A DNA stretch of 20,000 nt from Chiloscyllium plagiosum (taxonomy: Eukaryota): positions 3,641,260 through 3,661,259 of the forward strand of contig NC_057751.1 of NCBI RefSeq assembly GCF_004010195.1, read 5' to 3'. Below are positions 3,383 through 20,000 of the stretch, one piece after another. The position numbers and the translations under genes were made by a program. The notes under the pieces were generated by a model. That model was not told the origin of the DNA. It was given only the letters and a program-made list of their open reading frames with translations, and did not search any database. Within the stretch, counting starts at the first letter, position 1; each line of letters starts with the position of its first letter.

Positions 3383-3411
3383 ATCTCATTTTCTCACTTT
3401 TTGCCCTCGTA

Positions 3412-3775
3412 AACATAGAACATAAACGTTACAGTGCAGGACAGGCCTTTCGGCCCTCAATGTTGCACCGACCTGCAAAGTTAACCTGATGCCCATCTAA
3501 TGTTGGCGAGGCCATTCCATGCCCTTAATACTGTCTGAGTAAAGAAACTACCTCTGATATCTGCCCGAAATCTGTCACCCCTCAATTTAAAGGTATCTCC
3601 CCTCATGTTAGCCTTCACGCTCGGAGGAAAAAGGCTCTCACTGTCCATCCTATCTCACCCTCTGATTATCTGATGCTTTCAGATTAAGTTACCTCTCAAC
3701 CTTTTCTATTCAACAAAAATAGCCTCAGTTTCCTCAGCCTTTCCACATAAGACCTTCCTTCCGTACCAGGCAACA
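3412..3775 (-). mobile_element. 3' end of host CR1 element A (continues at 5771)
   Basis: Terminal AACATAGAACATA repeat, then CAGGCCTTTCGGCCC 3'UTR motif, then the reverse complement of the ORF2 C-terminus. It breaks at CCAGGCAACA (3775) and resumes as GTAAATCTCC at 5771. Confidence 0.85.
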
Positions 3776-3779
3776 CAAT

Positions 3780-5770
3780 GTCATAGTCATAGAGATGTAC
3801 AGCATGGAAACAGACCCTTCGGTCCAACCCGTCCATGCCGACCAGATATCCCAACCCAATCTAGTCCCACCTGCCAACACCCGGCCCATATCCCTCCAAA
3901 CCCTTCCTATTCATATACCCATCCAAATGCCTCTTAAATGTTGCAATTCTACCAGCCTCCACCACATCCTCTGGCAGCTCAGTCCATACACGTACCACCC
4001 TCTGCGTGAAAAAGTTGCCCCTTAGGTCTCTTTTATATCATTCCCCTCTCAGCCTAAACCTATGCCCTCTAGTTCTGGACTCCCTGACCCCAGGGAAAAG
4101 ACTTTGTTTATTTACCCTGTCCATGCACCTCATAATTTTATAAACCTCAGTCTCTGATGCTCCAGGAAAAAAAGCCCCAGCCTGTTCAGCATCTCCCTAT
4201 AGCTCAAATTCTCCAACCCTGGCAACATCCTTATAAATCTTTCCTGAATCTTTCAAGTTTCACAACATCTTTCCGATAGGAAGGAGACCAGAATTGCACA
4301 CAATATTCCAACAGTGGCCTAACCAATATCCTGTATAGCTACAACATGACCTCCCAACTCCTGGACTCAATACACTGACCAATAAAAGAAAGCATACGAA
4401 GCGCCTTCACTATTCTATCGACCTGTGACTCCACTTTCAAGGAGCTATGAACCTGTACTCCAAGGTTCCTTGTTCAGCAAAACTCCCTAGGACCTTACCA
4501 TTAAGTGCATAAGTCCTGCTAAGATTTGCTTTCCCAAAATGCAGCACCTCGCATTTATCTGAATTAAACTCCATCTGCCACTTCTCAGCCCATTGGCCCA
4601 TCTGGTCAAGATCCTGTTGTAATCTGAGGTCTCCCTCTTTGCTGTTCACTACACTTGCAATTTTAGTGTCATCTGCAAACTTACTAACTGTACTTTTTAT
4701 GCTCACATCCAAATCATTTATATAAATGATGAAATGTAGTGAACCCAGCACCAACCCTTGTGGCACTCTACTGGTCACAGTCCTCCAGTCTGAAAAACAA
4801 CCCTCCACCACCACCCTCTGTCTTTTACATTTGAACCAGTTCTGTATCCAAACGGCTAGTTCTCCCTGTATTCCATGAGATCAAACCTTGCTAACCAGTC
4901 TCCCATGGGGAATCTTGTCGAACACCTAACTGAAGTCCATATAGATCACATCTACTGCACTGCCCTCATCAATCTTCTTTGTTACTTCTTCAAAAAACTC
5001 AATTAAGTTTGTGAGACATGATTTCCCACTCACTAAGCCATGTTGACTATCCCTAATCAGTCCTTGCCTTTCCAAATATATGTACATCCTGTCCCTCAGG
5101 ATTCCTTCCACAAATTGCCCACCACCAATGTCAGGCTCACTGGTCTGAAGGTCCCTGGCTTGTCCTTACCACCCTTCTTAAATAGAGGCACCACATTAGC
5201 CAACCTCCAGTCTTCTGGCACCTTACCTGTGACGATCGATGATACAAATATCTCAGCAAGAGGACCAGCAATCACTTGTCTAGCTTCCCACAGAGTTCTA
5301 GGGTTCACCTGATCAGGTAGTGGGGATTTATCCACCTTTATGCGTTTCAAGACATCCAGCACTTCCTCCCCTGTAATATGGACACTTTTCAAAGTGTTAC
5401 CATCTATTTCCTTTCAGTCTATATCTTCCACGTCCTTTTCCACAGTAAATACTGATGCAAAATACTCGTTTAGTATCTCACCCGCTTTCCGTGGCTCCAC
5501 ACAAAGGCCGCCTTACTGATCTTTGAGGGATCCTATTCTCTTCCTAGTTACCCTTTTGTCCTTGATGTATTTGTAAAAACCCTTTGGATTCTCCTTAACT
5601 CTATTTGCCAAAGCTATCTCATGTCCCCTTTTTGCCCTCCTGATTTTCCTCTTAAGTATACTCCTACTGCGTTTATACTCTTCTCAGGGTTCACTCGATC
5701 TATCCTGTCTATACCTTATATATGCTTCCTTCTTTTTCTTAACCAAACCCTCAATTTCTTTAGTCATCCA
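3780..5770 (-). mobile_element. Young 5'-truncated CR1/HER1-type LINE (element B, about 2 kb) with a frameshifted RT, nested in element A
   Basis: 3' tail GTCATAGTCATAGAG at 3780. Minus-strand ORFs 5096-5392 (WRLANVVPLFKKG), 4926-5111 (QHG..GKSCLTNLIEFFE..DVIYMDFS) and 4437-4814 (VPQG..LG..FIIYINDL..KFADD, with FADD at 4668-4679) are RT motifs broken by frameshifts and stops. Confidence 0.96.
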
Positions 5771-7469
5771 GTAAATCTCCTCTGAACCCTTTCCAAAGCT
5801 TCTGCATTCTTCCTCTAATACGGTGACCAGAACTGCAGGCAATACTCCAGGTGCGGCCGTACCAGTGTCGTGTACAGGTGAAGCATGACCTTGTGGATCC
5901 GAAACTCAATCCCCCTACCAATTAACGCCAACACACCATATGCCTTCTGAACAAACCTATCAACCTGGGTGGCATCTTTCAGGGATTCATTCACCTGGAC
6001 ACCGAGATCTCTCTGTTAATCTACACTGCCAAGATTTTTGCCATTAGCCCACTGTTCTGCATTCCTGTTACTTCTTCCGAAGTGAACTATCTCACACTTT
6101 TCTGCATTAAACTCCATTTGCCACTTGTCAGCCCAGCTCTGCATCATATCTATGTCCCGTTGTAACCCAGAACATCCTTCGGCACTATCCACAACTTTGC
6201 CTTACCTTAATGTCATCCACAAACTTACTAACCCATCTTTCTTTGTCCACATCCAGATCATTTATGAAAATAACAAACAGCAGTGGCCCCAAACAGATCC
6301 TTGCAGCATATCACTGGTAACTGAGCTCCAGGATGAACATTTTCCATCAACCACCACCCTCTGTCTTCTTTCAGCTAATCAATTTCTGATCCAAAGCGCT
6401 AAAGCACCTTCAATCCTGAAACTCCTTATCTTGTGGAATAGCCTACCATGCGAAACCTTATCAAAAGCCTTACTGAAGTCCATATACACCACATCAACCA
6501 CCTTATACTTTTATCCACCTGTTTGGTCATCTTCTCAAATAACTCAATAAGATTAGTGAGGCACGACCTACTCTTCACAAAACCATGTTGACAATCCTTA
6601 ATCAAATTATTCATTTCCAGATGATTATAAATCCAATCTCTTTATAACCTTTTCCAACACATTACCCACAACCAAAGTAAGACTCACTGGCCTTTAATTA
6701 CCAGGGTTGGCTCGACTCCCCTTCTTAAACAAGGGAACAACATTTGTTATTCTACAGTCTTCTGGCATTACTCCTATCGACAATGATGGCATCACGATTG
6801 AAGCAAAAGGCTCAGCAATCGCTTCCCTGGCTTCCCAGAGAATCCAAGGGTAAATCCAACCCTGGGTTCTTATCTATTTTCAGATCTTCCAAAATTTCTA
6901 AAACCTCCTCTTTGTCAACCTGAATCCTACCCAATTTTATACCCTATATCTCCATATTCTCACTAACATCGTCCTTTTCCAATGTGAATACTAATGAAAA
7001 GTATTGATTAAGTGCTTCCCTTATGTCCTCAGATTCCACAGACAACTTTCCACTATTATCTTTGATTGATCCTATACTTACTCTAGTCATTCTTTTATTC
7101 CTGATATACTTATAGAAGGCCTTAGGGTTTTCCTTGATCCTATCCGCCAACAACTTCTCATGTCCCCTCCTGGCTCTTAGCCCTTCTTTAGATGTTTACT
7201 GGCTAACTTATAACTCTCAACAAAGCTTTCATGCCTCATCCTCACAAAAGCTTTCCTCTTTCTCTTGACAAGAGCTTCAAATTTAGTAAACCATGGCTCC
7301 CTCTCTCGACAACTACCTCCCTGCCTGATACATATATACGTATCAAGGAACCGCAGTAGCTTTTCCTTGAATAAGCTCCACATTTCAAGAGCGTCCATCC
7401 CCTGCAGTTTCCTTCCCCATCCTATGCATCCTAAATCTTGCCTAATCACATCATAATTGCCTTCCCCCC
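5771..7469 (-). mobile_element. CR1 element A, ORF2 pseudogene (linker plus RT; APE endonuclease absent)
   Basis: Minus-strand ORFs 7177-7449 (W.LFKEKL..EPW), 6944-7153 (IKENPKAFYKYIRNKR) and 6426-6614 (QHGFVKSRSCLTNLIELFE). The catalytic motif reads FVDD at 6212-6223. The sequence is clearly diverged from element B, so it is a different subfamily. Confidence 0.92.
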
Positions 7470-7818
7470 AGGGTATTGGTACCCCTCTGGTTCAGGTGAA
7501 GACCATCCTGTTTGTAGAGGTCCCACCTTCCCCACAACGAGCTCCAATTATCCAAGAATCCAAAGCCCTCCTCCTGCACCATCCCTGCAGCCACTGTTCA
7601 GCTCCACGCTCTCCCTATTCCTCACTTCACTAGCATGTGGCATGGGCAACAAACCAGAGTTAACAACTCTGTTTGTTATAGCTCCAAGCTTTCAACTTAG
7701 CTCCCTGAATTTCTGCCTTAGATCTCCAATATTCTTCCTACCAATGTCATTGATGCCTATGTGGACCACAACTTGGGTAGCTCCCCCTACCCCTTAAGGA
7801 TCCCGAAAACCCTGGCAC
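7470..7818 (-). pseudogene. CR1 element A ORF1, C-terminal half of the SGNH/GDSL esterase domain
   Basis: Minus-strand translation, with frameshifts: VFGILKG..VVVHIGINDIGRK..RVVNSGLLP..WLQGWCR..WDLYKQDGLHLNQRGTN. GxND block at 7746-7763; DxxH (DGLHL) block at 7493-7507. Confidence 0.88.
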
Positions 7819-7819
7819 A

Positions 7820-8063
7820 AGTTCTTGGACGCAGTTGGAGAGGTCACAATGTCTCCAGAGAGCAGCCGAGCCTGTCAGGACATGTGAGTGTACGGTTTAA
7901 ATTTCCTTTAGTTCCTGTTTATCGTCAGTTCCTGGATGCAGTCGGAGAGGTCATGAAGTCTCCAGGGAGCAGCAGAGCCTGTTGGGATACGTGAGCACAA
8001 CGTTTAAATTTCTTTTAGTTCTGGATTTTCTTCAGTTCCTGGATGCAGTCAGAGAGGTCATGA
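7820..8063 (+). repeat. 107-bp tandem repeat, about 2.3 copies, probably the 5'UTR of element A
   Basis: Units start with AGTTC(T/C)TGGA(C/T)GCAGT at 7820, 7927 and 8034, giving an exact 107-nt period. All three share GAGAGGTCA; the two full units share GAGCCTGT and GTTTAAATTTC. Confidence 0.92.
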
Positions 8064-8721
8064 GGTCACATATATGGGCAGTTGCTTTACCCAAAACACG
8101 ACTCGGGTAGTGTCTCGCACCCACCCTCCTCCTCTTACCAAAACAAAATCTGTGCATTGGTTGGTAAGGTGACAAGTATTTTCTTTCATGTTTCATTTGT
8201 TTTTTTTTCCAGCAGTCTATTTGGGAATTTAGATTAGTGGGATTGGAGATTAGGGCAATTGAATGTTCCTCCTGCATTATGTGGGAGGTAAGGGTCACTA
8301 GTGTCCCTGCTGACTTCATTTGTAGGAAGTGCACCCAATTCCAGCTCCTCGAGGACCGTGTTAGGGAATTGGAGTTGGTACTGGAGGAACTTCGGATCAT
8401 TCAGGAGGTGGAGGGGGTTATTGAGAGGAGTTACAGGGAGGTAGTTACTCCGCAGCCACGTGAAGAAGGTGGATGGGTTACCATCAGGGGTAGGAAAGGG
8501 AACCGGCAGGCAGTGCAGGGATCTCCTGTGGTGGTTCCCCTCGTCAAGTATACTGCTTTGGATATTGTTGAGGGGGACGACTTACCAAGTCATTCTGTCC
8601 CTGTTACTCAGAAGGGAAGGAGGAAGAGATAGTTAAGGGGACAGATAGGAGGTTTTGTGGGAACAAGAGAGACTCATGATTGGTGAGTTGCTTCCCAGGT
8701 GCCAGGGTTCATGATGTCTCT
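8064..8721 (+). mobile_element. CR1 5'UTR and ORF1 N-terminal half (zinc finger/leucine zipper plus start of esterase), inverted relative to 3412-7818
   Basis: ORF 8237..8632 contains CSSC..MWE..CRKC followed by a heptad-rich LLEDRVRELELVLEELR. After a deletion at about 8628 that removes the GDS block, it reads IVKGTDRRFCGNKRDS*LVSCFPGARVHDVS and ends at about 8721. Confidence 0.9.
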
Positions 8722-8730
8722 TACCTTTTG

Positions 8731-9003
8731 GGCAGCAAGGATCTCTTATTGCAATTGTACAGGACCTTGGTGAGAGTATTGTGTGCAGTTTCGGTCTCCT
8801 TCTGTAAGGAAGAATGTTCTGGCTATGCAGGGAGTGCAAAGAAGGTTTACCAGACTGATTCCTGAAACAGCAGGACTGACATATGAAGGGAGACTGGATC
8901 AGTGAGGTCTAGACTTTAGAAGAAATGGTGGGGGATGTCATAGAAACTGATAAAATGCTTACAGGATGAGAAAGGTTGAATGCCGGAAGGATATTCCCAA
9001 TGA
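8731..9003 (+). mobile_element. Decayed CR1 ORF2 C-terminal fragment of a third subfamily
   Basis: Reads SKDLLLQLYRTLVR, then ..VQRRFTRLIP..AGLTYEGRLDQ.., across small deletions. Confidence 0.8.
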
Positions 9004-9006
9004 ATA

Positions 9007-9539
9007 GAGTTAAAAATCACACTAGGTGATAGTCCAACAAGTTTATTTGGAAGCACTAGCTGCTGAAATGCTGCTCCTTCATCAGGTGGTTGTGGAGTAT
9101 AAGATCGTAGGCACAGAATTTATAACAAAAGTTTACGGTGTGATGCAACTGAAATTATATATTGAAAAATACCTAGATTATTTGTTAAGTCTCTCATCTT
9201 TTAGAAAGACCATGTTGGTTTCAGTTCTTTCACATGTAAATCCTTAAACATTTTTGAAAAAGCTACATTCTCAAGTGAACTTTAACAACAGGTGCCAAGT
9301 CAGCTCAGATAATGCATTGAAGGTGTGAGGTTCCCTGTGTGAGCCTGTGTCCCAACATTCAGACTGAATCTATTTCCAAAAAATAGATTTACAGAATCTT
9401 ACATGGATTCATGCAGTTTTTGAGCAAAATAAAATTCTGCAAGTACAAATTCACCCCACAAACTGTGTGCACGTGCATGTGGGTGTGGGTGGATGTGGGG
9501 GGTTTGAGCGTCTGTGAAAGAGCATGTGTATGTGTATCT
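9007..9539 (-). mobile_element. Penelope-like element 3' region (non-coding tail) with decayed hammerhead core and TG-rich microsatellite
   Basis: The minus strand reads CCACCTGATGAAGGAGCAGC..GCTAGTGCTTCCAAATAAAC..TTGGACTAT (CTGATGA at 9079-9085), which I recognise as a shark Penelope-type terminus. It grades into TG-rich sequence at 9463-9543. No ORF evidence. Confidence 0.6.
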
Positions 9540-10048: not shown

Positions 10049-10147
10049 TCAATTCATTTCCTACTTCTGTCTGTTCTTTGCTTTCATCTCATCAAATTGT
10101 TTTCTATCTGTTGCAATATTGAGGTTGTAAGATTGTTATGTTCGTAC

Positions 10148-10407
10148 GTGGTACGATGGCTCAGTGGTTAACACTGTGTCTGAGTGGGTTTCCTCTGGGC
10201 CCTCCAGTTTTGTCCCACAGTCCAAAGATGTGCAGATTCAGTGGATTGGCTGTGCTAAATTGCCACAGTGTCCAGAGATGTGCAGGTTAGGTGGGTTAGC
10301 TATGGGAAATGTGGGGTTGCAAGGGATATGGTTAGGGTGGTGGGTCTGGGTGGATTTGATGGACCAAATGGCCTGTTTCCATGCTGTAGATACTGTATGA
10401 TTTTATA
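10148..10407 (+). mobile_element. HE1-like SINE with an internal deletion that removes the B-box
   Basis: A-box TGGCTCAGTGG is followed almost directly by TGTCTGAGTGGGTTTCCTC, skipping the B-box segment present in the 3069 copy. Two CCACAG..CCA(A/G)AGATGTGCAG units and a GGACCAAATGGCCTGTTTCC tail are present. Confidence 0.85.
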
Positions 10408-10541
10408 TGCCTGTTTAATTTTCAGGTGAAGGAGTCCATCTGTTGTGTGCCAAATACTGCTCATCTTACGGCAATAAGAGACCCAAGTCCAAGAACTTGT
10501 CGGGCACATTCTCACATCTGCGACAAAGGGCCAGAGAGGTT

Positions 10542-13627: not shown

Positions 13628-14025
13628 TCGAGAGGATGCTGCTGGGTCAACATGTAGTTGGGGGTGTTGTGGTAAATTGAGGGTAAATTGAAAAGGTACT
13701 CAGGAATTAGCCTTAAAAATCTAAGTTTTCCTGAGTAACTATTTAATGACATGTGATGAAACCCTCTAAACTTCCAAAGTTAAATTGATTATTTTGGACA
13801 GTTCCAGGTGTAGGAAATTGCCAAGCAGAATCTTCAAATTTCCAGGCAGGTCAGCTACACTGGCTTTTCTCAGAGATGCCATGTGCAATTCTCATCTGTG
13901 CTGGAGAAACCATTAAGTGGTGTTTGGAAAATCCAGGCCAATATTCCCTCATCGAGTGGTAAAGCAAAAAAATAAGGTACTCTCTGACAAAGTCTGGTGA
14001 TGTTTACACTTCTGTTTTGGCAAAG

Positions 14026-14468
14026 AGGTTCATAGCTCCTTGAAAGTAGAGTCGCAGGTAGATAGGATAGTGAAAAAGGCATTAGATATGCTTTCTTTTA
14101 TTGGTCAGAGTATTGAGTTCAGCAGTTGGGAGGTCACGTTGCGGCTGTACAGGACATTGGTTTGGCCACTGTTGGAATATTGCATGCAATGCTGGTCTCC
14201 TTCCTATCGAAAAGATGTTGGGAAACTTGAAAGGGTTCAGAAAAGATTTACAAGGATGTTGCCAGGGTTGGAGGATTTGAGCTACAGTGGTGGAGGCTGG
14301 TACAATTGCAACATTTAAGAGGCATTTGGATGGTTATATGAATAGGAAGTATTTGGAGGGATATGGGCCGGGTGCTGGCAGGTGGGATTAGATTGGGTTG
14401 GGATATCTGGTCAGCATGGACGGGTTGAACTGAAGGGTCTGTTTACATGCTGTACATCTCTATGACTC
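14026..14468 (+). mobile_element. Young CR1/HER1-type 3' fragment (same subfamily as element B) with an internal deletion of about 250 bp
   Basis: ORF 14040..14318 (LRLYRTLV.PLLEYC.Q.WSPSYRKDVGKLERVQKRFTRMLPGLEDLSY) jumps at 14287 to TGGTGGAGGCTGG and ends with the CTCTATGACTC tail. Confidence 0.93.
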
Positions 14469-18339: not shown

Positions 18340-18587
18340 CTCGGCTGAAAAGTAGCAAGAAGCATTTGTGCTACACAAATGCCAGGTAATGACGATCTCT
18401 GACAAGAGACAGTTTAATCATTGTCCCTTGATATTCAATGGCATTATCATCACTGAATTCCTCACTATCAACATCCTGGGATTACCACTGACCAGAAAGT
18501 GAACATGACTAGTCTCAAGAATACAATGGCTACAATGGGAGGTCAAAGACTAGAAATCCTGTTGTGAGTGGCTCACCTCCTAATTCC
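18340..18587 (+). mobile_element. RT-thumb fragment of apparently the same old LINE, inverted
   Basis: Plus-strand translation AEK*QEAFVLHKCQVMTISDKR..LIFNGIII..INILG/ITTDQKV..GQRLEILL*VAHLLI matches the W..F...KC..M and LG(V/I)..D.KL RT-thumb motifs. Confidence 0.7.
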
Positions 18588-19407
18588 ATGATGCTTGTTC
18601 ACTCCCCCCCACCCCCGAAGGGAAAAAGTCTCAAATATAAGAAAAATGGAAATAAATTTTGAACATTGTTCACAAACGATGCAAATTGCAATTGTGAATT
18701 ATTTTGTTTTATGTATGCAGTGGTGTAAAGACGATCTTTATGGCAGTCAAATCTTTCAAATATGCAAGATAAAATTTATCAAATGTGCACCAAGACATTG
18801 CTGGAAAGTAACAAATGAGCAAGGAAATTAAAATCATTTCCAGGTTTGTTCTATGGGTTATCTTGAACATTACTCTCACCTGTCTGGTAACCATGCGGTT
18901 CTTTCAAGTTTTTTTTCTCATGTCACTCGTAATAAAAAGTTGAATAATTACCTGTGTTTTTCAATTCAAATCCCACCCTACTCACTGCAGTGTTCAGACA
19001 TTAATGTTTGCCATATAACAAGTTCCGCTGGTCAACAACTATTCCATGTGCACAACAGGTAATGCTAGTCATTTCTCTATCAAACTGTTCGTTCCATTAT
19101 AAAATATGCTAAACATTATTCTCATGTGCAATGTTCCATGGTCAAAGAATCATTCAAATATGTGTTCCCAAACCTGCTCCTTTTTAAAGGGGAGACTGAT
19201 ACAATAACGATGAGCAAGTGGCAAGAATTATGCCACCCTTTGGCAATTAAAGTTTTTTCACTGCGATGCAATACTCAAGTACCTTAAGTCATCTTGTTTT
19301 CATTCAGTAGAGATAAAAGTCAAACAATAATGCACAATATGGAAGGGATTTTGTTTTGGGTAAACATTCACTTTCAACAAATTATAATTGAATAAATCTT
19401 TTCCTCA

Positions 19408-20000
19408 GTTACTGCCTTTGCTGTTTGAATTCGTGTATCACTGGACATCGGAGTGCATCTGGGAAAATTAACAAACAACTAATCTTGGAGGAATTGGTTT
19501 GGGCAAAGTTCACAGCACAGAATCAGATAAGTTAATTGTTGTGTTAAGTCTGTCCAAGAGAAAGGCTACAGTAGTGAGTATAGTGGATTCTTTCTTGATT
19601 ATATGTTTTTGGAGATAAGTCTCTTGATTAAACTTAAAATATAAGCCATAGCTATTAATTTAACCTGGGGCAGTGTTTGTAGAGGAATAAGACGGTGTTA
19701 TTTTCTGGGTCTGTAGATTGTGAAGGAGCAAAATGGCCTTTGCAGTAATATGTACTTTTTGTCAGATGTGGGAGTTTAAAGAGAGTTTAAGGATTACTGT
19801 GGATTATATCTGTTGGATGTGAATCTTATCAGATTGAGTGGATCGGTTGGAGAGACAGATAGAAGCGATGAGGAATTTGCAACAGCAACAGTATGTGATG
19901 GATGGCAGTTATAGGAAGGGGGCAAACTGTCAGATACAGTCACATAGATGGGTTAACTCCAGGAAGGATTAGAGAGGTAGGCAGCTAGTGCAGGAGTCTT
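19408..20000 (+). mobile_element. 5' region and degenerate ORF1 N-terminus (zf/lz) of another CR1-family element, running off the right edge
   Basis: From the ATG at 19733: MAFAVICTFCQMWEFKESLRITVDYICWM*ILSD*VDRLERQIEAMRNLQ..MDGSYRK..WVNSRK. This is colinear with the 8237 ORF1 (CxxC-x-MWE, D(F/Y)IC, SYR, WV). The 5' boundary is approximate. Confidence 0.8.

Follow-up and report, generated by a model that had tools for sequence, protein, structure and literature searches.

The window analysed here is a stretch of 20,000 nucleotides from Chiloscyllium plagiosum (GCF_004010195.1, NC_057751.1, 3,641,260 to 3,661,259, forward strand), in which at least six CR1-like pieces are found. Its main feature is a CR1 host element whose 5' ~900 bases are flipped exactly where the remainder begins, leaving two arms that stand head-to-head with the 3' tail at the far end (Table 1). 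We used a natural chondrichthyan CR1 ORF1 (P0001) as the residue ruler for both arms and L001, the sole useful locus from our contig searches, as a distant nucleotide ruler (tblastx) for the body of the host element.

Table 1. Features of the host element and its surroundings (window coordinates)
Feature	Position	Strand	Basis
Left copy, candidate degraded 12-bp TSD	3392..3403	+	10/12 identical to 8719-8730
Host 3' end: ORF2 C-terminus, 3' UTR, TTCTATG-type tail	3412..3775	-	colinear with L001 3308-3517
Nested younger 5'-truncated CR1, other subfamily, same orientation as host	3776..5770	-	ORF2 comparison, RVT_1
Host ORF2 (RT and preceding region), stops and frameshifts	5771..7470	-	tblastx colinear with L001 1514-3313
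Non-inverted ORF1 part, P0001 184/185-302, esterase C-terminal half	7463..7816	-	92/115 aligned residues identical
Internal deletion of ~870 nt	7466..7470	-	L001 alignment passes from 647 straight to 1514
Inner head-to-head junction	7808..7819	-	7808-7818 = reverse complement of 8699-8709; 1-2 nt at the join unaccounted for
107-bp tandem array, 2.3 copies	7820..8067	+	probably 5' UTR of the element, inferred
Presumed unique 5' UTR	8068..8236	+	between array and ORF1 start; P0080 alignment begins at 8177
Inverted ORF1 part, P0001 1/4-183, two internal deletions	8237..8721	+	122/155 aligned residues identical
Right copy, candidate degraded 12-bp TSD	8719..8730	+	10/12 identical to 3392-3403
Right flank: 3' ORF2 fragment, different CR1 subfamily	8735..8980	+	identity to host and nested ORF2

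The original prediction of a CR1 LINE agrees with what the host copy contains, namely an esterase-type ORF1, an RT-bearing ORF2 and a 3' microsatellite tail without poly(A); the L1-type ORF1 and poly(A) of the L1 clade are both lacking. Canonical vertebrate CR1 elements likewise have a GDSL/SGNH esterase ORF1, an RT-bearing ORF2 and no poly(A) according to the accessible part of PMC13343379, where galeomorph sharks are also reported to be without canonical L2; the shark copy differs from them in that its 5' part is inverted and its endonuclease region deleted. In Pfam searches, P0001 matched Lipase_GDSL_2 with E 5.6e-15 (esterase residues 148-296), while its residues 6-36 resembled a zinc ribbon at sub-threshold level only, and the short ORF1 pieces of the window gave no Pfam match on their own. 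The nearest named ORF1 relatives are from Mustelus and Stegostoma (chondrichthyan P0001-P0003). Host ORF2 is 45% identical to the RT-bearing P0059, and one of its three short pieces, 39 aa long, matched RVT_1 with E 4.4e-4, below the Pfam cut-off.

The minus-strand body begins, as predicted, inside the ORF1 esterase: the codons A-R-V-F-G-I-L-K are read from 7816 downward, and ORF1 residues 185-302 are followed by ORF2 to 5771. Its 3' tail was correctly placed at 3412, and a degenerate extra unit may reach ~3408. The block proposed for removal from the body is indeed a nested CR1 of another subfamily (RVT_1 E 2.8e-15), which is 64% identical to host ORF2 over 1560 columns and 87-94% identical to the copies at 1-405 and 14017-14467. 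The ~870-nt internal deletion, absent from the original prediction, takes the last ~10 ORF1 codons and the start of ORF2, which by position is the endonuclease region. The host copy is a single, long dead and decayed one with no evident function.

The inverted arm accounts for the first part of ORF1. It terminates in the codons D-V-S at 8713-8721, so that codon S183 is the outer breakpoint, and lacks P0001 residues 141-153, a stretch that includes the GDS motif. That tandem units and UTR sit at the junction was predicted; the array (82% matches) does start there, and the UTR is presumed by its position only. The array probably belongs to the 5' UTR of the element. No further copy of it was found within the 20-kb window, and a protein search with the stop-free frame across array and UTR gave no relative. 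The available portion of PMC13343379 mentions 5' tandem subunits of 100-500 bp solely in elements that lack ORF1. A 122-bp repeat (1.8 copies) upstream of an esterase-bearing ORF was seen at another locus, L002 (TRF, 13 loci); it was set aside as a parallel to the array, L002 being 37% identical and unclassified.

That the two halves complement each other and are joined 5'-to-5' is borne out by the residue ruler, on which the plus arm spans residues 4-183 and ORF1 continues in the minus body from 184/185. On an element of ~4.2 kb, the breakpoints of the two arms agree within 0-23 nt, which by simple arithmetic would happen for unrelated ends in about 1% of cases. At the protein level, identity to P0001 is 79% for the plus arm (122/155) and 80% for the minus arm (92/115; Fisher p 0.88), and the arms are also comparable in divergence against three other references (p 0.13-0.57, protein level). 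Of 120 proteins, 43 cover both arms; within these, P0001 is the top match to the plus arm and shares the top rank for the minus arm. In a tree whose input held some misframed residues, the plus arm is sister to P0001 at 87/62; with the same input, the minus arm falls in an open group of seven rows on a longer branch (0.45 vs 0.27). The arm identities correlate with a Spearman coefficient of 0.83, which is expected for any two related-family pieces and is not counted as support. Of the proposed check of colinear, equally diverged arms of one subfamily, equal divergence is seen at the protein level; a common subfamily is suggested only coarsely, by the common best reference, and the trees, with weak or open support, do not settle it, which counts against the single-insertion reading.

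The complementary breakpoints, equal divergence and common best reference support a single CR1-group element carrying an inverted 5' segment. The arms could otherwise stem from two independent copies of the same family lying back to back, one a 5'-truncated minus copy and the other a plus copy with its 3' part deleted, whose breakpoints match by chance or through homology-guided repair. CR1-group elements make up 22-34% of elasmobranch genomes in the accessible part of PMC13343379, the window itself is rich in CR1-like pieces, the common subfamily of the arms is shown coarsely only, and CR1 ORF2 sequence does come after the plus arm, at 8735. Where it aligns, however, that fragment shares only 69% identity with host ORF2 and 72% with the nested copy and therefore comes from another subfamily; we rejected it as a 3' continuation of the plus arm. 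As two copies would also require a breakpoint coincidence of about 1% or less and would have to be equally diverged, we regard this origin as very unlikely.

At the inner junction, the 11-bp match reported in the original prediction is exact, at 8699-8709 (+) and 7808-7818 (-), with one occurrence per strand in 20 kb and a rough probability of 2e-5 for such a placement by chance. Its status as an inverted duplication did not hold to the same degree. The join can be read either as flush, with a single substitution, or as an overlap of 23 nt from which 21 nt were later deleted, and because ORF1 has its own near-repeat at this position (GARV...SDRV), duplication is only one reading. The match therefore supports twin priming more weakly than was first held. 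The junction shows 0-1 nt of microhomology plus 1-2 extra nt. Recombination between the two 11-mers was rejected, since it demands a stranger ancestor. An assembly artefact, with 7820-8721 turned around by a chimeric read or by a contig placed in the wrong orientation, has to be considered in a region dense in repeats that was assessed from the assembled sequence alone; but neither break has an N gap or a long inverted repeat, the 11-bp match being the sole inverted one, and if the flip had occurred between the 11-mers, 23 nt of inverted ORF1 would lie outside the element with no explanation. We consider such an artefact highly improbable.

The outer boundary bears on when the flip occurred. 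From 8722 onward, no array or UTR remnant was found on either strand. The original prediction had identified no TSD; a degraded 12-bp candidate with 10/12 identities does exist, but it was found after looking, its left copy is separated by 8 nt from the tail at 3412, and most scoring schemes give it a p of 0.01-0.07, but it fails the strictest, with p 0.55-0.67. A post-hoc test (p 0.0007-0.007) was not relied on, because length and threshold had been set after the match was seen, and the best exact short TSD is 3 nt, which is at chance level (2098 of 3000 random pairs do as well). The right copy of the candidate begins at the last codon of the plus arm, where the first 3 nt are common to both and could represent microhomology between target and RNA; this would be 3 nt only if the candidate is real.

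A staggered-break inversion is expected to leave an inverted duplication at the outer breakpoint too. None was found there (the best local match is 5 nt, a score that 94.5% of random pairs reach), and this form of inversion was rejected for that reason. More generally, a nearly full-length minus-strand CR1 could have suffered two later breaks, the first in ORF1 and the second at the 5' end of the element or slightly outside it, that flipped 0.9 kb. Blunt breaks would yield a flush join, and old 4-kb copies can carry such microinversions, which accumulate in birds at 0.25-0.39 per Mb per My (PMC3123225). The copy was also rearranged after insertion in other ways, by the ~870-nt deletion, short deletions and the nested insertion, which counts against an inversion at insertion; and if the array were flanking DNA, a later microinversion would be the preferred reading. 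Against it, the clean outer edge means that the outer break must have fallen on the edge of the element or that the remainder was cleanly lost, and a genuine TSD at the candidate site would enclose the element in its inverted state. The lack of both a second inverted duplication and a stranded UTR remnant favours inversion at insertion, and we judge a later microinversion to be rather unlikely, though the most serious of the competing accounts.

We argue that a twin-priming-like insertion of one CR1 RNA is the leading mechanism, and a fairly probable one. The twin-priming model for 5'-inverted L1 reportedly goes back to Ostertag and Kazazian in 2001. Applied here, one CR1 RNA would have been copied from two primers within a single insertion. 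The first target nick would prime at the 3' tail and give a cDNA of ~3.3 kb, reaching ORF1 residue 184 or ~23 nt further; the second target end would anneal in the RNA at codon 183 and be extended by ~0.9 kb toward the 5' end, stopping in the array, and the two cDNA ends would then be joined. Decay would have come afterwards, together with the ~870-nt deletion, several shorter losses and the arrival of the nested CR1. Such a copy would have been dead on arrival, because its promoter and ORF1 start point away from the body.

Three expectations of twin priming are seen directly: head-to-head arms with a far tail, adjacency in element coordinates, and equal divergence of the arms. Two further ones, a TSD of 10-20 bp and 2-5 bp of target/RNA microhomology at the outer junction, correspond to candidates only, in which the shark copy differs from twin-primed L1. 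The 3-nt microhomology at the 12-bp candidate would, if the candidate is real, fit the prediction in the accessible part of PMC2912911. The inverted-5' architecture of the original prediction stood; twin-primed integration is the leading explanation, with a candidate TSD whose support depends on the scoring scheme, and one ancient copy is not enough to establish that the inversion arose at insertion.

By analogy, the shark copy works like a 5'-inverted L1, as a CR1-group element. In human 5'-inverted L1, so far as the available text describes it, an inverted 5' segment is likewise head-to-head with a non-inverted 3' segment, and the breakpoints are adjacent in element coordinates, within about 20 nt. 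Excerpts of 10.1101/2024.08.27.596794 give a median deletion of 14.5 bp and a median duplication of 22 bp at twin-primed L1 junctions; the shark junction offset lies within this range, which counts for twin priming. The forward/inverted ratio is about 3.6 in the shark copy and on average 2.6 in L1 (same excerpts). Unlike L1, with its own ORF1 and poly(A), the shark copy has an esterase-type ORF1 and a microsatellite tail and lies in a non-mammalian host; in addition, L1 breakpoints are described as concentrated toward the 3' end, while the inverted arm of the shark copy seems to extend into the 5' UTR array.

The accessible part of PMC4245944 treats 5' inversion as nearly L1-specific in human cells, the stated reason being overhang length: the overhangs of CR1/L2 elements (3-5 bp) are too short for twin priming in its model, CR1/L2 TSD lengths peak at 3-5 bp, and ZfL2-1 showed no 5' inversions in cells. 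The same text reports a single 5'-inverted insert of Nimb-2_DR in chicken DT40 cells, which, like the shark copy, is a non-L1 LINE; it differs in being a cell-culture insert with ~12-bp TSDs, the CR1/L2-type ZfL2-1 of that study being uninverted. We found no CR1 precedent for 5' inversion in the literature searched, and the parts accessible of PMC5389967, PMC6007223, PMC3747384, PMC4316615, PMC4476161, PMC13174262 and PMC12350158 contained nothing on inverted CR1. Searches of metagenome, viral and genome contigs gave 0/179, 0/5 and 0/106 candidates with P0001, and 12/257 (all 43% or less), 0/40 and 1/57 with alignment A1. Of the 24 sequencing runs listed as sharing 7000-9400, 19 hold part of it, with best shares of 0.61 and 0.59 (two samples of one organism in one study) and ~0.2 in two other organisms; these runs are silent on the junction and on orthologues and are not taken as evidence.

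One decayed copy by itself alters little. If a CR1 twin-priming junction with a long TSD is true, the length model would be supported and the clade restriction dropped. It is conceivable, but doubtful, that this shark CR1 lineage twin-primes recurrently because the staggered cut made by its endonuclease is at times long (~12 nt); in that case, the rule that elements of the CR1/L2 clade generate TSDs of 3-5 bp, too short for priming from the second end, would be broken, and 5'-inverted CR1s would form a class that can be counted in shark genomes. Since CR1-group elements account for 22-34% of the genome there, sharks would permit a direct count of whether the TSDs of inverted CR1s are longer than those of ordinary ones.

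The window is repeat-rich vertebrate DNA and contains a single, real CR1-group copy whose 5' part is inverted. The closest named relatives of its ORF1 come from sharks and rays. The frame of the inverted block (the plus arm), used as a protein query, matched 2 of 443 candidate proteins, the better being P0001, a natural ORF1 protein of 313 residues with a GDSL esterase domain. In tblastn, P0001 residues 1-183 map to 8237-8721 on the plus strand and residues 192-303 to 7793-7460 on the minus strand; frame-aware alignment extends the minus arm back to residue 185, from 7816. Across the breakpoint P0001 reads PGARV-RDVS-DRV-FGILKG. Since the plus arm terminates in D-V-S (8713-8721) and the minus arm takes up A-R-V-F-G-I-L-K, the two halves of ORF1 complement each other and are fused through their 5' sides, in agreement with the original prediction. 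That this join is an artefact of assembly is highly improbable.

Among natural ORF1 relatives, the N-terminal part of P0086, P0162, P0163 and P0168 skips directly to (AR)VRD(V/I)(S/L)D, the motif at which the window inversion breaks; these jumps may be introns placed by gene predictors, may reflect true splicing, or may mark a site of recurrent deletion or template jumping. The record of P0008, which shares 76% identity with the ORF1 of shark-type CR1, names it an SGNH hydrolase of Pseudomonas aeruginosa and places it on a contig of 4159 bases; host DNA has probably contaminated this bacterial record.

With 3776-5770 removed, as had been proposed, the minus-strand body proved to match L001, a distant natural locus, in colinear order over ORF1, RT and the 3' end. 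At 7466-7470 this ruler skips from 647 to 1514, a deletion of ~870 nt absent from the original prediction. The removed piece, a nested CR1, aligns with the host CR1 at 64% identity over 1560 columns and with two further window copies at 87-94%, marking it as younger and as a member of another subfamily. The element works like a 5'-inverted L1 but differs in ORF1 type and in its tail, a TTCTATG-type repeat with no poly(A), and these two features rule out L1 identity. The CR1-group features covered, an esterase-type ORF1, an ORF2 with reverse transcriptase and a 3' microsatellite tail, were all found.

Other repeats are collected in the table. The 178-codon frame, which gave no real match in Pfam, may resemble the C-terminus of Penelope-like elements, and by eye a decayed stretch at 18380-18600 (+) resembles the RT C-terminus of a LINE of another clade. 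The label HE1/V-SINE for the SINE-like repeats is our guess, prompted by a table in PMC3747384.

Other repeats and reading frames in the window
Feature	Position	Strand	Remarks
Another CR1 subfamily, 5' end	19560-20000	+	ORF1 start 33% identical to P0001; runs past window end
Younger CR1 subfamily, three copies	1-405; 3776-5770; 14017-14467	-; -; +	87-94% alike; third with internal deletions
Two SINE-like repeats	just left of 3381; 10140-10410	; +	66% alike; 3' ends resemble CR1 3' end
Stop-free frame, 178 codons	9387-9923	+	

The similar divergence expected of the two arms was observed: identity to P0001 is 122/155 for the plus arm and 92/115 for the minus arm (Fisher p 0.88), and three other references gave p 0.13-0.57. 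Both arms are covered by 43 of 120 proteins, with P0001 first for the plus arm and joint first for the minus arm. In trees with 28 references hand-chosen from 256, the plus arm lies beside P0001, a weakly supported placement (87/62); the minus arm falls, on a longer branch, within an unresolved seven-member group containing P0001. Together, these results support an equal age of the arms and are only compatible with the same subfamily. That two separate CR1 copies happen to abut is very unlikely, since unrelated ends would match within 23 nt with a chance of only ~1% (arithmetic for a restored length of ~4.2 kb). Moreover, the CR1 ORF2 fragment from ~8735, which follows the plus arm, is ruled out as its continuation by 69% identity to the host ORF2.

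An 11-bp inverted duplication had been proposed at the inner junction. The match is exact and occurs once per strand; duplication is one of two readings, and a flush join fits too. R-V recurs in ORF1 seven codons apart. The breakpoint motif is present in 104 of 256 proteins, followed by DRV in 35 and ARV in 2. The D-R-V codons of L001, a locus 43% identical to P0001, are GAC AGG GTT, one base from GCC AGG GTT in the window. The junction could thus be a flush join with one substitution; equally, the first cDNA could have overshot the second primer by 23 nt, 21 nt between the near-repeats being skipped or later lost. Both readings fit twin-primed L1, whose inversions are reported to carry short deletions (66%, median 14.5 bp) and duplications (17%, median 22 bp; 10.1101/2024.08.27.596794).

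We consider a twin-priming-like insertion the probable origin of the inversion. A later microinversion of the 5' block is possible though rather unlikely. Such events are not rare over long times, the reported rate in birds being 0.25-0.39 per Mb per My, with smaller ones said to be commoner (PMC3123225). Array- or UTR-like sequence outside the inverted block and a second inverted duplication were found nowhere in the window, so that, provided the 107-bp array belongs to the element, the outer break of a later inversion must have hit the element edge or the remainder been erased. The array continues directly into the UTR, and 5' tandem arrays of this kind occur in shark CR1 leaders. Arrays of 100-500 bp subunits are described for some CR1-group elements, those without ORF1 (PMC13343379). 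Counting against twin priming, PMC4245944 reports that TSD length of CR1 and L2 peaks at 3-5 bp, that ZfL2-1 gave zero 5' inversions, and that Nimb-2 was the sole non-L1 inversion among >200 inserts.

At the target site, the longest exact flank repeat is 3 nt, equalled in 2098 of 3000 random pairs. A degraded 12-bp match (3392-3403 and 8719-8730, 10/12 identical), 8 nt from the tail, is a lead to a putative TSD. Unanchored local alignment gave p 0.07 and 0.05; of the anchored tests over all lengths, three schemes gave p 0.010-0.039 and a fourth, where the copy must touch the tail and mismatches are penalised more, gave 0.55-0.67. The right copy begins on the final codon of the inverted arm and would thereby give 3 nt of microhomology; 2-5 bp is reported in ~70% of inverted L1s (PMC2912911).

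In the largely open-access literature searched, no precedent for a 5'-inverted CR1 was found. The element would gain in wider significance should inverted CR1s with long TSDs turn out to form a class.
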